A DNA stretch of 64,000 bases from Escherichia coli (GTDB lineage Bacteria; Pseudomonadota; Gammaproteobacteria; Enterobacterales; Enterobacteriaceae), in assembly GCF_003991155.1 (NCBI RefSeq), contig NZ_CP031297.1. The stretch is one strand, 5' to 3'. How positions within the stretch are numbered: position 1 is the stretch's first letter; each line of letters starts with the position of its first letter. The position numbers were made by a program. Of the stretch, positions 6,001 to 36,000 are shown piece after piece.

Positions 6001-9000
6001 TCAGGTGCTGTTGATTCGTTCTTCCAGCCTGTAGAGCAGTTTGTTGATCAACTCATTGACCAGCTCAAAGAGCAAGTCAAAGAAGTGATGATGGATGTCA
6101 TGAAATCAGCAGGCCAAGATGCAGCAACAGAGCAGGCGGCTGCCGCAGCATCTGAACAAGCTGCCGAAGCAATGATGGAGACTGCGACAACATGGCTTAG
6201 CACTGCCATGACGATATATACCGTCTATGTCGTTGCGATGGTGATGATCCAGATGATTTATAAGTGCGAGGAAGAAGAGTTCACTATGAACGCAAAAAGA
6301 GCGCTCAAGAATTGCACCTATGTAGGCTCTTATTGTAAATCTAAGGTGTTGGGCGCTTGTATTGAAAAAAGAGAAGCGTATTGCTGCTTCAATTCTCCGC
6401 TCTCTCGTATTATACAAGAACAGGTTCGCCCTCAATTGGGGCAGAACTTTGGAGACCCCAAAAATCCTCAGTGTGAAGGGATTCCACTAGATAAAATTGC
6501 CGAAATTGATTGGAGCAAAATTAATTTGGATGAGTGGCTTGGGATATTACAGCAGAACGGTAAATTCCCTGATCCGGCCTCAATAAATCTCGACTCGCTG
6601 ACTGGAGCAGGGAATGACTTCAATATTGACGGGACGCGGAAGAATGCTCAGGAAAGGGCGTTGGAGCGGTTGGAAGGGATTGATATTGACGCGAAGCGAA
6701 AAGAGGCGACAAACAGCATAGACCCTCAAACAGGCGCGCCAACTGGTGGTGGATAAAAAAAGGGGCCTTTCGGCCCCTTTCTCATGTAGATTGATTACGC
6801 TTCTGGGTAAACAAATAACTCTGCTTTTCCCTGATCAAGAAGGTAAGGGAAAGCAACTTTTTCGCCATTATCCAGCTCAACCGATTTTGGAGCAAGGTAG
6901 AGGTAGGCCCAAGCTGGTAGCTGTTTGCTAATAGCTGCGTAGATCGCTTGCTGAGGAGCATGGCTTGCTGCCCCATTACCGACATTCACAAAGTTGTATG
7001 CGGTCTCATGGCCTGATGTGAAGGCATACGCTGTACCTTGAACGCCAGAGACAAAATTAGGAGCTGACCCTAGGCGAGGCTCCACGATTTTCACCTTAAC
7101 GGAACACATGTCAGCTACCTTACTTTGTCCGTTCACCCACGTCGGGCAACCCCATTCATTCTTGTAGAACTGATAGGTTAGGCGACCGTCTTTGTCATAC
7201 AGAAGCGTGAAATTGGCACCCAAATCAGTCAGCGCTGACTCAATGGAAACTTTCACATGTGAAAGAAATTTGGCCTGAGCGTCTGCCGGTGAAACTGCTT
7301 CGTTAGCAGGCATCCAAGCGATCAAGCTATTGCGAGCGCCATGCTGTTTGGGGCCGATAGCCCAGTTCGCAAGGTTGACCAAGCCACCTTGCCAGTCGGT
7401 CATTCCGAGCTGAGGGGACATGTAGCCAGACAGCACGTAGGCTGCCCCAAACGTTTTGGTGTCGGTCAGACGCTCCAGCTTGTCACGCGGAACAGAAGCG
7501 TCTTGGATGCCTGTTACCAGGCCACCGGCCTCCGCGATGTTGTAAGCGCGACTGTGATTGGTTTTGTACGCTGTGGGTTCGTAACTGCTGGTGGATGCAC
7601 AGCCAGATAGAGCTGCTACAGCCAGAGCCACGGTGGTGATTAAAGCCTTTTTCATGTTGTTCTCCGTTCTTACCTGAGTTGAATCTGATTTACTTCGATA
7701 ATATCACAGCATCAAAAAATGCAACCATAAAAGACAAAAAAAAGCCCCTCGGGCGAGGGGCAAAGGTTTGGGCTGGGTTATGCTGCTTTTGTTTTCTCGG
7801 CTTCGTCTGCGATTTCCTTGTCGCCGGTTGCAGATTCCGGAGCGGCTTCGGCCACTTCACCTTCTTTGCCTTTGCTGTGGGCGGAAATGCGAGCCCGTTT
7901 CTCGATGCCGATGATTCGACCGGCCAGCTTGATGAGGCGTTGCTGCCATTGGTAAGTGGCGTCGGTGCGCTGCTTGCTGGTCAGTACGGTGTTCAGCCAG
8001 AGAGTGTCAACGATCCCCATCAGGGTATCCAGTTTGCGGATCAGGTGTGCAAACTGAGCAACCTGAGGAGAGTTGATCTCGATGGTGTATTCATTCGGGT
8101 TGGTGTAGCCGGGCATCATGTCGATGCCGTTGTCTTCCATCAGCTTGTTGAGCTGGGCGGTAGCTTTGTCCAGGTCTTCGGAGACCTTGGAAATGTGTTC
8201 CAGGATGACGGTTTCAACCTGGTCGATTTCGTCCTGCTCACCGATGATGCGAAGGATCACGTCGATGGAGAACAGGGAGTTGGAAACTCGCTCAAAGCTG
8301 CGTTCCATGACGCGCTGAGCTTGGAGGCTGTTTACTTTCAGAACTTGCTTGAAAACAGGGCGAGAGTAGTGGTTGCTGCGGTCGTTGTTTGTGTCCAGTG
8401 CTACTTGTGCTTCTGCCATTAGAGATACTCCTAAATTTGAGGTACAGATAAACGCACTGGAAAGGATAAATGCGGTCAATCTGTAACCTGACCTCTCGAA
8501 GTGCCCAAAATGGACAGTTACAGCGTTTTCTGTTTAGCAAAGGTGAGCTATATTTGAATCATCTTAGTCGCTCTGCGGCTATAGGTGAGATAGCTGGTCT
8601 CCGAAAACAAACAGCATCTAGTCTTATGCCGTATGGCATTACTTAACCCCAAGCCGGGGGCTTCTCCCGGTTTTCGGGTGTTGCCCCTGTTTTTTTTACA
8701 TAGGAGCAACACCATGCACATCATCACTTTCATTGTAGTTCTGCTTGCATCTCTGGGCGCACTGTACGTAGGCGCGAAGGCATTTGCTTTTTCCTTCATC
8801 GTTCTCGCTAAAGTGTTCCAGCGTATCGGTTTGTTCCTTTGGAACAAATTCGCAGTTCCTGCAATGCGGTCTGTACAGGCCGTCATCAAAGAACGTGCTG
8901 CCAAGGCTGAACAAGCCAAAGCAGTCGTTGAACCTGAGGTAACTCAAGTTCAAGAAGTCGCTAAACAAGAACCTGACTGGGATTATCTCGAAATCCCGAC

Positions 9001-33000: not shown

Positions 33001-36000
33001 GTAAAACTCGGAACCTTAAAGCTCGGCTTTGGCCGTGACCTTTCAATAACCCATGCGGGTACACTTCCCCGCACGGGGTAGGTGTACCCATTAACTTTGG
33101 AGTACACCTTATGAACCAAGTAGCTAAATTGGACCTCGCCCAAATCCGTCAACAAGCCATCAATGATGGTCTGCTGGTGGACCAATCTTCCATCGGTAAA
33201 CAAGCTGGTTTCCTGACCAATGTGGCAGTGACCCCGGCAATTGTCGATGGAGTATTTGGTGCAGATGGTAAGCACTCGGTAGAAGACTTCCTTTTCATGT
33301 TTTTGCAGCTTTGTGTTGCTCAAACAAAGGTCGCTTTTACCGACAACAAGAATTGGGGAAAGATTCGTCTTTATTACCCCATGCCCACTGTAGATGGCTT
33401 TTTCAAACCCACTGAGGTTGTGATTAAGTCAGATCCTGTAACCGCAGATGTCACAATCATGATGGCCTCGGAAGAGGGCGCTCATTTGTGCTTGTGATAT
33501 TCACAAAATTCGCCTCCGTTTCGGGGGCGACCTTTTTAAACCCCTCGCCGGGGAGAACTCCCCGGCTGGGGAGCCTCCTTGGCACATTCTCCCGGTGTCG
33601 GGGTTTCCTTAAAACCCTGGCGACGGGGGTTTAAGGAAGCCTCGATGCTGGGGTTCACGCTAAGGAGAAAACCTATGTCTTACTACAAAGCTGACACCGT
33701 TCGTGAAGCTGCAAACGGAAACTGGCTATTCATCCTGGCGGCCCTAGCGCCCCATCTTGAACCAGCTCTCCGTAAACCTGGTCGTCATGTTTCTTGTCCT
33801 ATCCACGGCGGGAAAGATGGCTTCCGACTGTTCAAGGATGCCCACCTGACTGGTGGCGGCGTATGCAATACATGCGGTGCCAATCATGATGGTTTTGAGC
33901 TGCTGATGTGGCTCAATAACTGGGACTTTAAACAGTGCCTGAGCGAGGTTGGTGATTATCTGGGCGTTGAGAAAGAGCAACCCCAGTATCAACAAGCCGC
34001 TGCACCGACACGAGCTCCTGTCCAGGCCAAAGCGCCTGTTCAGCAAGAGCCTATGAAGGTGAATAACAAGGTTCTCGATTCCAAGAATCGTAAAAAATCC
34101 ATTGCCGGTACTCTGATTGCCCACGGTAAAGCTCCTTATGAGCATAACGAAGACAACGAGCTCAGCTACTTTGCCTTCATCCGTGACAAGAGCGGTTTGG
34201 AACGCACCATCTGGGGCGTGGATCTTGAAAGAGCCATTGGTGAAAGTGAAGCCAAGTATGGGGATGAGATCGTCATGACAAACCTCGGGCGCGAGCCTGT
34301 AACTGTCGTCGTTGAAGTTAAGGACGAGCAGGGGAATGTTGTGAGAGAACAACCTATGCAAACGCATCGCAACACCTGGCTGGTGGAACGTCGCGGCGCT
34401 ACGGTAACGCAGTTCCGCGCTCGCTCGAACGGTGGTGTTGAGCCGGTGAGTCACCATGTTGAGTCGGCCCCTGTGGTCAACCGCAAGGTAGAAACTCCGG
34501 CACCGCAAGTACAACCTGCGGCCACACAACCGGAAGAGCAAAGCAGCGAAAATAAGCCGAAAGTTGTTCCGATGTTTCGTGAACAACCTAAGCCTTGGTT
34601 GCTTGAGCTCCAAGAAGAAATGGAGAAGAGAATGGAGCGCGAACGCGCTTACAGTGCTCGTCTCCGTGAGAAAATCGAGAAGGTATGGAACGAGTGTTTG
34701 CCGTTCTCCAGTCATGTGACTGAGCCAATGCGTCTGTACTTCAAAAACCGCGAGCTGCTGTTCAAAGTTGATGAAGTAGAAAAAACAGACTGTCTGCGGT
34801 TCAATCCGGCTATGGCCTACTACGACGAAGATGGCAATGAAGTTGGGAAATTCCCGGCTATCGTCTGCGCTATCCGAGATGTGGAAGGCAACCTGGTAAC
34901 GCTCCACCGCACCTATCTCACCCAAAACGGTAAAAAAGCCAAGGTCGGCAACGCCAAAAAGATGATGCCCATTCCTGACGGTTTGGATGTCAATGGCGCG
35001 GCCATCCGCCTCGGTGAACCGACTGAGGGTATCCTGGGTGTTGCAGAAGGGCTGGAAACAGCTCTGTCAGCTTATCGAGTCACTCAAATCCCGGTTTGGT
35101 CAACGGTCAATGCCACCCTAATGGAGTCCTTCGAGGTTCCAGAAGGTGTTCACACCGTACTGATCTGGGCTGACAAAGATAAGTCTGTGACTGGGGAGAA
35201 GTCAGCGAACGTGCTGAAAGCCAAGCTGGAGAAGCGCGGCATTCGTGTGTACGTCCTGCTGCCTAAGCTCCCGATCCCGCCCAGAGCGAAAGGGATTGAC
35301 TGGAACGATGTCCTGATGAGTCAGGGAAGCCTCGGTTTCCCGAATGCTCGCTACCTGCGCGATTTCATTGCGAGAAGGAGAGCTGAGTATGGCCGTCATT
35401 GATGTCTCGAAGGTTGATACAACGCCTGGTAACGACGCGGTGTGCCCCTTCTCTCCCCCTGAGGGGTGGGAGGGGGACTCTGCGGCCTACGTTGAGCTTA
35501 TGCGGTCTCGGTATCGTCATCTGATGCACGGCCAGAGAATGATGGTGACAGCCTCCTTCGCAAGAAGGGAGCCTATCCAAGTTACTGGCCCGTTTGCTGA
35601 TGAAGCGACGAAGATCATTAACTCAATGAAGATGAACAAGGCGAAGCCAACAGCTTTGTCTGCCTAAAACTTTAACCCTGAGGGGGTGTTCATGCCCTCT
35701 CAGGCATGATTCGCCTCCTCTTCAACTATGGAGGTAATCATGAAAAAGTTTTTGCGTATTAAGACGTGGTTTGTGCGTCTTTTCTCTCCTGACAAGAAGA
35801 CTCTGGGAGCTATCGGTGAAGACCTGCGTAAGGTCGCCGTAACAGCCATCGGTGTCGGTATTGTAGGGGTCGTCTCAGAAAACGGAATCTATGGTCACTC
35901 CCGTTTTTGCAACACCGATTTTGACGACAAGTTGGCTTGCTTGAATCTATCCGGCGTCTGAATGGGATTTTATTCCCGCGCCTCGATGAGTTCCGCGCCT

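Follow-up and report, generated by a model that had tools for sequence, protein, structure and literature searches.

A probable two-state translational attenuator repeated along a gene array of IncC plasmids

The gene array and the repeated element

The Escherichia coli contig NZ_CP031297.1 (assembly GCF_003991155.1) includes a stretch of 64,000 nucleotides, here called the window, in which about 38 genes lie between 8.6 and 36 kb, all in one direction, flanked by traN and a resistance island. Nearly every intergenic gap of this array holds a GC-rich RNA hairpin element, which is the subject of the present analysis. The array encodes an AAA ATPase (the vcrx089 homologue), ssb, bet, exo, a DUF3150 protein, a VWA/CobT-like protein, dcm, a PAPS-reductase-family protein and a primase, along with many further genes of unknown function. 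Positions 15000-30000 show 100% identity to AB571791, an IncA/C backbone integrated in Salmonella Typhimurium, and are matched by hundreds of IncC plasmids. The array is driven by AcaCD-activated promoters (Carraro 2014, Table S3), and a single transcript extending from vcrx087 to vcrx094 has been detected by reverse transcription PCR (RT-PCR). The genes from vcrx089 to exo are host-defence-evasion genes required in the recipient upon entry (Roy 2020), the functions of the array being linked to survival of restriction and CRISPR attack in a new host (PMC7498323).

The original prediction described about 28 spacers of alternating C-runs and G-runs, each starting at a stop codon and ending about 10 nt before the next ribosome-binding site (RBS). 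Inspection of every gap of at least 35 nt on the + strand between 8.6 and 35.8 kb raised this count to 30 copies in 32 gaps, with the element present at all 20 positions that had been given as examples. The two gaps lacking it hold terminator-like hairpins (at 9239 and 17753), and the genes without a copy either overlap the upstream gene or sit within about 10 nt of it. When the run pattern was coded as CCC-N2-6-GGG-N3-12-CCC-N1-6-GGG, it was detected in 20 of the 32 gaps as against 0.49 ± 0.67 in dinucleotide shuffles (maximum of 3 in 500), with no matches in the 23.9 kb of array coding sequence and, in the remaining 27.8 kb of the window, one match on the + and two on the - strand. The enrichment over shuffled sequence is thereby confirmed. 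Mean column identity among the copies is 50-54%, so that they form no family of near-identical repeats.

Anatomy of the element and its two folds

The 80 nt preceding each start codon were folded. From 5' to 3', a G-poor single-stranded leader of at least 10 nt, ending in YAACCC, is followed by a first hairpin (H1) and then by a second (H2). H1 begins at the CCC of (T)AACCC and pairs CCC-N3-GGGG with CCCC-N3'-GGG across a loop of 5-8 nt, while H2 starts 0-3 nt after H1 and has as its 3' strand a GGAG-type Shine-Dalgarno (SD) sequence together with the AUG. The element can be divided into a (CCC-N3), b (GGGG, joined by a gene-specific x), c (CCCC-N3'-GGG), d (x' plus CCC or CUCC) and, after a loop, e (SD and AUG), with e resembling b+x. 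These parts permit two mutually exclusive arrangements of the four-segment type, in which 1:2 and 3:4 pairings (H1+H2) compete with a 2:3 pairing (H_alt). In state A, a and b pair with c, leaving x in the loop of H1, and d pairs with e, sequestering the RBS. In state B, b+x pairs with d as one long hairpin, H_alt, and the SD and AUG are free.

About 22 of 28 full-length copies have H1+H2, with SD and AUG paired, as their minimum free energy (MFE) fold; omission of the ribosome-binding region from the fold yields H_alt in nearly all copies. Since d pairs both with b+x and with the ribosome-binding region, b+x acts as a mimic of the latter, as can be seen in copy e01 (GGGGCAACCAUA versus GGAGCAACAUCAU). 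The 3' part of the element pairs with the RBS and start codon, so the element contains the RBS and does not end before it. This pairing and the mimicry had been overlooked in the original prediction. The leader logo consists of A at -2 and -1 followed by CCC, with G depleted from -10 to -3. No conservation other than this G depletion is found upstream of UYAACCC, by which a boxA/nut-like reading of the leader was ruled out.

A covariance model (CM), R1, was built from 34 diverse seeds, five of them from the window. It recovers 25 window copies at E<0.01, full length, all on the + strand and within 8641-35745, in addition to four weaker variants. The copies are the following, with untranslated regions abbreviated as UTR and open reading frames as ORF:

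8641..8719, + strand: e00, 5' UTR of the first array gene (CM E=0.001)
9063..9134, + strand: e01, before an unannotated 30-codon ORF at 9129-9221 (CM E=2.7e-9; MFE H1+H2)
9675..9748, + strand: e02, before the AAA ATPase gene, vcrx089 homologue (CM E=5e-4; MFE H1+H2, -39.6 kcal/mol)
11625..11699, + strand: e03, before ssb, TAA being the true stop (CM E=6e-9)
12236..12321, + strand: e04, before bet in the ssb-bet gap (CM E=3e-8)
13300..13373, + strand: e05, before exo, TAA being the true stop (CM E=3e-12, seed)
14510..14583, + strand: e06, before the DUF3150 gene in a long gap (CM E=3.5e-6)
15871..15945, + strand: e07, before the VWA/CobT-like gene, variant leader (CM E=0.07; MFE H1+H2)
18327..18403, + strand: e09, variant leader CAACCUCAGCC (CM E=0.12; MFE H1+H2)
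18961..19033, + strand: e10 (CM E=2e-12, seed)
19529..19607, + strand: e11 (CM E=0.004)
20481..20557, + strand: e12, TAG being the true stop (CM E=3e-4)
20771..20843, + strand: e13, TAA being the true stop (CM E=4e-6)
21944..22012, + strand: e14, TAA being the true stop (CM E=1.7e-8)
22205..22272, + strand: e15, the exemplar (CM E=4.6e-12, seed)
22746..22817, + strand: e16, in a long gap (CM E=2.4e-7)
23163..23239, + strand: e30 (CM E=9e-6)
23544..23619, + strand: e17, before dcm (CM E=1.5e-5)
25237..25305, + strand: e18, degenerate variant (CM E=0.017)
25734..25810, + strand: e19, without a CCC leader, H1+H2 kept (from the MFE fold; no CM match)
26527..26597, + strand: e20, in a long gap, leader UCAACCC (CM E=1.5e-5)
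27004..27071, + strand: e21, before the PAPS-reductase-family gene (CM E=6e-11, seed)
29661..29726, + strand: e22, 5' UTR downstream of an AcaCD box (CM E=0.002)
29927..30001, + strand: e23 (CM E=0.002)
31104..31174, + strand: e24 (CM E=2e-7)
31733..31806, + strand: e25 (CM E=3.7e-12, seed)
32795..32863, + strand: e26, before an unannotated 48-codon ORF at 32858-33004 (CM E=1.7e-6)
33044..33116, + strand: e27 (CM E=2e-9)
33535..33680, + strand: e28, before the primase gene (partial CM match, E=0.25; MFE -89.5 kcal/mol)
35670..35745, + strand: e29 (CM E=1e-7)

In the exemplar e15 the UAA occupies 22208-22210, H1 22211-22240, H2 22242-22269 and H_alt 22218-22253, with the SD (AGGAG) at 22257-22261 and the AUG at 22267, all on the + strand. 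An ATG at 22201 is in frame with this start, no stop intervening (22201-22269), and translation through e15 could in principle add an N-terminal extension of 22 codons. Orthologous copies of e07 are found in dozens of genomes. In e28, a canonical H1 is followed by an anti-SD/SD helix that encloses an extra long hairpin of 22 bp (33585-33650, GGGGTTTCCTTAAAACCC...GGGGGTTTAAGGAAGCC), an arrangement kept in the Vibrio alginolyticus plasmid pVAS19 (L002, ~37400-37468).

The position of the element indicates that four annotated starts lie too far upstream, with e00 pointing to ATG 8714 (annotated 8633), e30 to ATG 23234 (annotated 23153), e25 to ATG 31801 (annotated 31768) and e29 to ATG 35740 (annotated 35728); the annotation of IncA agrees with the start at 23234. 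It likewise indicates the two small ORFs following e01 and e26, each of which has its own element and SD and is unannotated in AB571791.

Covariation and the functional strand

With a variable register and a bistable RNA, MAFFT alignments of the copies yielded next to no structure in RNAalifold; a hand-given structure, a covariance model and pair counts were used instead. Covariation was computed on 145 distinct best CM matches. For state A it amounts to 0.276, compared with 0.164 ± 0.006 in shuffles (none of 500 as high) and at most 0.135 with slid partners. State B, counted on the same alignment and therefore on one not fitted to H_alt, gives 0.286 as against 0.208 ± 0.009 (none of 500), slid partners reaching at most 0.202. 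The variable primary sequence and conserved alternative hairpins of the original prediction thus find support in covariation of both folds. Pairs of G.U type number 1140, A.C mismatches 136, which indicates that the sense strand is the functional, selected one. Substitutions between IncA and IncC affect paired positions about 2.4-fold less often than unpaired ones.

Complementarity and predicted energetics

The pairing partners are specific to each copy. In the window, d pairs with its own ribosome-binding region at -13.5 kcal/mol and with those of other copies at -9.7 kcal/mol (permutation p<5e-5), while b pairs with its own d at -22.3 and with others at -12.8 kcal/mol (permutation p<5e-5). 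Among 355 copies of other genomes, in whose detection the pairing of b+x with d played no part, b+x with its own d gives -13.3 as against -8.9 kcal/mol for others of the same locus (p=4e-42). A helix engaging the SD and start codon is thus indicated by the MFE folds, by this own-versus-other specificity and by the covariation of H2 helices 3-5.

According to the prediction H2 is stable, and opening it costs about 9 kcal/mol at 37 C. If the first 6-12 nt (UAA, CCC and N3) are kept unpaired, the cost of opening the region from SD to AUG falls from 9.0 to about 5 kcal/mol, and extending the mask to at least 16 nt, which covers b as well, returns it to above 10 kcal/mol. The same series in 216 copies from outside the window runs from 9.45 through 5.91 to 12.0 kcal/mol (p ~1e-32). 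When H1 modules are swapped between copies the effect is lost, the masked state costing 9.0 kcal/mol compared with 5.2 kcal/mol for the own module (p<5e-5). Mean predicted energies of the IncC copies are -32.5 kcal/mol for H1+H2 and -23.9 kcal/mol for H_alt with the ribosome-binding region free. Direct-path barriers, which are upper-bound heuristics that exclude pseudoknots, come to about 21 kcal/mol for leaving A towards B, about 14 for the return and about 20 for H1 to H_alt on the nascent RNA. These values suggest that H1 forms first and persists, the closed state being the predicted default, and the last of them makes a kinetic ON window during transcription unlikely. A partly melted H1 could permit pairing of loop x with d as an intermediate.

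Distribution and previous descriptions

In the complete IncC plasmid pAR060302 (166.5 kb), scanned by motif plus hairpin and by the covariance model with agreeing results, copies are confined to 82.6-109.7 kb on the + strand, and none occur in the tightly packed genes of the tra, rep and par regions. The syntenic array of Vibrio alginolyticus pVAS19, at about 69% nucleotide identity, carries the element in about 30 gaps, and in V. tubiashii p123 its leader is of the CUCAACCC type. A VWA protein profile scan of one genome per species yielded 80 loci, many of which hold numerous + strand copies and almost none on the - strand; among the copy-bearing loci are those of Pseudomonas plasmids and of Methylobacter, Methylomonas, Halomonas, Alcanivorax, Marinomonas, Edwardsiella and Thiocapsa relatives. 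A motif-free detector, defined by a hairpin adjoining an SD/AUG-sequestering hairpin ahead of an ORF, returned 554 sites on the + and 46 on the - strand, with the leader logo emerging unprompted. In 1.4 Mb of relatives the covariance model gives 362 matches at E<=0.01, all 300 of those listed being on the + strand. The pattern that had been proposed for this backbone is therefore present in related ones as well.

The element was not found in the arrays of a Providencia plasmid, Succinatimonas and Thorsellia. The AT-rich Providencia plasmid pPROV252-1 (L009) carries at 6900-19300 a syntenic array without it, and most gaps there hold a terminator-like hairpin and U-run followed by a conserved TTTTAAATCTATTAAT motif directly before the RBS, which is a different type of punctuation for the same gene set.

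Part of the element has been described before. In SXT, a copy upstream of bet has been reported as a strong translational attenuator that hinders Bet and Exo synthesis despite high transcription, and this attenuator has been stated to occur also in IncA/C plasmids (review PMC4542580). A structure sequestering the vcrx089 RBS, corresponding to e02, has been predicted (Roy et al. 2020). Attenuators that sequester the SD are thus already known, including one characterised copy of this element. A full-text literature search, in which the SXT attenuator was accessible via the review only, found neither the alternative fold nor the YAACCC leader described, nor any account of the element as one repeated across an array or a family. 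In Rfam 15 no family matches at gathering score, and at E<=5 only chance-level matches unrelated to the copies appear. Conservation of a riboswitch kind was not observed, as only YAACCC and the C- and G-runs are conserved and the remainder co-varies with the downstream start region. What appears to be undescribed is the module before about 30 translation units, its RBS mimic, the covarying alternative fold, the leader and the hundreds of copies.

Upstream stop codons and alternative explanations

In 24 of the 30 IncC leaders, TAA or TAG stands before CCC. This triplet is the true stop in only 5 of the 22 internal copies, from which it follows that coupling driven by termination is not general. 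In the other 17 internal copies it is in frame in six, which is the chance expectation, and among relatives AACCC is preceded by U in 50% of copies and by C in 31%, making the motif YAACCC and not a stop codon. The upstream stop lies at least 15 nt away in 12 of the 22 internal IncC copies and 10-12 nt away in five, while in other genomes its median distance to H1 is 23-25 nt and about 6% abut. A terminating ribosome would accordingly touch H1 in a minority of copies only. Seven or eight copies occupy long gaps, where they follow a terminator-like hairpin, an AcaCD box or a conserved repeated block, so that placement after a nearby stop does not hold for them and the element is tied to the downstream start.

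These observations bear on the explanation that was initially favoured, in which a ribosome terminating at the UAA unwinds the outer H1 strand, H_alt forms and the next start opens, each cistron depending on translation of the previous one. The opening cost is indeed at its minimum when the UAA and 6-9 nt are masked, the motif's TAA or TAG is a true stop in five IncC copies with five more stops 10-12 nt upstream, a small peak in stop-to-H1 distance is seen at 3-4 nt, and the logic is like that of ermC-type attenuation and ColIb-P9 repY/repZ. It was downgraded by the stop-to-hairpin distances, most stops being out of the terminating ribosome's reach, and by the CAACCC leaders of relatives. The chance-level frame of the UAA and the long-gap or 5' UTR copies without an upstream ORF, among which only e00 has a mini-ORF running to the UAA, argue in the same direction, and termination-driven coupling is now held to be unlikely as the general explanation. 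A dedicated factor of the element or the host, either an RNA-binding protein or a small RNA, that recognises YAACCC and H1 and locks or unlocks all cistrons would account for the conservation of single-stranded YAACCC over very different hosts, including the AA that pairing leaves unexplained, and occupation of this strand opens the ribosome-binding region in silico. No GGGUU-rich RNA was found on the plasmid, however, and NCBIfam gave no match for ten small array proteins. Such a factor seems rather improbable as an explanation in its own right, and it is compatible with a cis-acting attenuator rather than exclusive of it.

Explanations in which RBS pairing plays no part fare less well. Protective stem-loops or RNase sites punctuating the mRNA, comparable to REP/BIME repeats or T7 RNase III sites, with RBS pairing as an incidental property, would fit stable GC-rich hairpins in nearly every gap that follow an A/U-rich, G-poor stretch (a possible RNase E site), as well as the failure to find intergenic promoters or terminators between genes. 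They leave the complementarity of d to its own SD and AUG and the mimicry by b+x unexplained, the stems of 10-14 bp are too short for classical RNase III substrates, and the homologue tested in SXT has been reported to act on translation (PMC4542580), so that this role is quite improbable. Terminators or attenuators of transcription, with H_alt plus U residues terminating and H1 as the antiterminator, are suggested by a U-run directly after H_alt in 50-85% of copies in Methylococcales and similar loci (L019, L020, L021, L023, L065, L081, L087), where the switch may double as a transcription attenuator or the U-runs may merely reflect AT-rich loops. Such a run is absent from all 25 window copies, all 19 of pVAS19 and all 13 of a Pseudomonas plasmid; a terminator scan flags no copy and the single RT-PCR transcript spans vcrx087 to vcrx094, making this a very remote prospect. 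Hardly any credence is given to a DNA-level origin (REP or MITE palindromes, attC-like sites, or single-stranded priming sites and hairpins in conjugation), for which the strand-specific hairpins and the SSB, primase and recombination proteins of the conjugative plasmid might speak. The copies differ in sequence and match the start region of the adjacent gene, with G.U to A.C at 8:1; they are confined to one 27-kb array at a fixed distance ahead of the start codon, and inspection of the gaps reveals neither a conserved attC core nor a near-identical family.

Proposed mechanism and significance

The complementarity of d to its own SD and AUG, together with the literature on the SXT bet copy, favours control of translation initiation. 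Each copy is therefore probably a cis-acting translational attenuator built as a two-state switch, gating the gene directly downstream. Of the translational role put forward in the original prediction, own SD/AUG pairing and SXT bet attenuation (PMC4542580) uphold the control itself, while coupling through the stop codon reaches only a minority of copies. Several observations weigh against the two-state switch. The MFE folds of e03, e14, e17, e18, e23 and e26 (5-6 copies) are mostly open at the ribosome-binding region, the AA of YAACCC is conserved yet not accounted for by pairing, and 14 of 28 IncA/IncC stem substitution events break a pair. Because copies differ in register, only some 73% of aligned cells form pairs in one structure or the other. 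All energetics are nearest-neighbour predictions, and barriers of about 20-21 kcal/mol imply that the ON state is seldom reached unaided.

The copies would jointly place the AcaCD-activated accessory and host-defence-evasion array, with ssb-bet-exo, the methylases, the primase and other genes, under a translational lock that is OFF by default, the array being transcribed on AcaCD activation and translated sparingly, or only when the switches open. State A would be both the co-transcriptional and the equilibrium state. By the computations, control would reside in the leader and outer H1 strand (YAACCC-N3), whose occupation may drive the switch to state B. The preferred trigger, proposed with low confidence, would be the arrival of a 30S subunit or ribosome at the G-poor leader. 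This may come about through termination of the upstream cistron, typically 10-25 nt away, or, in long gaps, through landing on the conserved A/C-rich stretch AAAAACAAACAGCA that precedes copies. A factor binding YAACCC could equally be the trigger. More tentatively, the element may represent a large uncatalogued class of modular three-helix riboregulators with an RBS mimic, placed ahead of nearly all translation units in the establishment and host-defence-evasion arrays of MOBH-type plasmids and integrative and conjugative elements (ICEs) across Gammaproteobacteria and unlocked together at YAACCC, although this wider proposal is regarded with some doubt. A common unlocking event, either 30S delivery or a factor active on entry into a new host, would then make the 27-kb array one post-transcriptional unit.

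IncC plasmids and SXT/R391 elements rank among the main vehicles of multidrug resistance. If every cistron is locked, translation, besides AcaCD-driven transcription, would set the timing and amount of array proteins, and about 30 genes could be controlled or attacked at once through one conserved RNA feature. The element would also be a rare natural modular switch copied along an operon, each copy being re-tuned to its own start. It provides hundreds of independent examples of three-way covariation that have no Rfam family and, as a practical matter, corrects four start codons and reveals two small unannotated ORFs in the window.

Other features of the array

AcaCD-box-like sequences (TGCCCAAAANGG...ACAG) are present at three sites that resemble the boxes upstream of traN and traL and match the pVCR94 ChIP-exo peaks within this array at vcrx087, vcrx098 and vcrx114. 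The predicted transcription starts precede the copies, and the complete element would therefore lie inside the 5' UTR. Sigma-70-type promoter-like sites are depleted at 8400-28399, numbering 3 compared with 14.1 ± 3.5 in shuffles. Three intrinsic-terminator-like hairpins with T-runs also occur on the + strand of the array, one of which (29518-29552) has a weak Rfam match to ctRNA_p42d (E=0.005), probably by chance. A second conserved block is found eight times in long gaps, 3-28 nt upstream of the YAACCC leader, and also in pVAS19. It consists of a small hairpin, G-N-G-R-U AGCUG G-Y-C-N-C, with compensatory changes, followed by (A)AAAACAAACAGCA. The sites are:

~8501-8530: AcaCD-box-like sequence
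18148-18175: AcaCD-box-like sequence
29547-29575: AcaCD-box-like sequence
9239-9260, + strand: terminator-like hairpin following the 9272 region
17753-17792, + strand: terminator-like hairpin following the VWA gene
29520-29552, + strand: terminator-like hairpin following the PAPS-reductase-family gene
8584-8616, + strand: second conserved block
9628-9660, + strand: second conserved block
14463-14495, + strand: second conserved block
18295-18327, + strand: second conserved block
22709-22741, + strand: second conserved block
26491-26523, + strand: second conserved block
29630-29657, + strand: second conserved block
32748-32780, + strand: second conserved block

This second block does not correspond to the AcaCD box; it could serve as a landing site for ribosomes, as a site of processing or as a promoter of another type. 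The repeated block ending in ...GATAGCTGGTCGCCAAAAACAAACAGCA was considered as an AcaCD box, which was ruled out by the traN and traL promoters and by Table S3 of Carraro 2014, and a sigma-54 reading was rejected on inspection. At e00, a mini-ORF of six codons (8626-8646, ATG CCG TAT GGC ATT ACT TAA) has as its stop exactly the TAA that adjoins the CCC; it lacks a clear SD and has no counterpart at the other 5' UTR copies. Outside the element array, Rfam AAC_AAD_leader/attI matches at 42158-42227 and 47042-47113 (68 and 95 bits) mark two class 1 integron attI regions of the resistance island.

Comparison with known systems

One of the closest known systems is the SXT bet attenuator, which occupies the same ssb-bet position in a homologous SetCD/AcaCD-driven operon and has its counterpart in e04. 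It has been described as a single site, whereas the present element precedes about 30 translation units and has a YAACCC leader and a covarying second fold. REP/BIME sequences are likewise GC-rich hairpins distributed across many operon gaps, but they are near-identical, symmetric at the DNA level and unrelated to start codons, while the copies considered here are diverse in sequence, specific to the RNA strand and matched to their genes.

In ermC and cat attenuation, two hairpins form the OFF state, the second of which hides the SD and AUG, and occupation of the first strand allows an alternative central pairing that releases the start. The same four-segment logic is found in this element. 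It differs in operating without a leader peptide, the only mini-ORF being at e00, or an antibiotic-stalled ribosome; the strand to be occupied is a leader/clamp of 6-10 nt, usually beyond the reach of the upstream stop, and the arrangement is repeated along the operon. In repY/repZ of ColIb-P9 and tap/repA of R1, a downstream RBS hidden in a structure becomes accessible once translation of an upstream ORF ends at a precise position, and in ColIb-P9 the loop of the upstream hairpin pairs beside the RBS. Here, in contrast, the loop pairs with the anti-RBS strand, the stop is precisely placed in a minority of copies and no antisense RNA is involved. The tisB and hok toxin mRNAs combine a sequestered RBS with an upstream single-stranded region for the 30S subunit, and are activated by processing and countered by antisense RNA. 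As in these mRNAs, alternative folds decide translatability, but tisB and hok are single toxin mRNAs, and neither processing nor antisense RNA is evident for the array. Synthetic toehold switches hold the SD and AUG in a hairpin that is freed by strand displacement from a single-stranded 5' toehold. The present element differs from them in being natural, in having the displacing strand built in as b+x and in relying on release of a clamp instead of a long trigger RNA.

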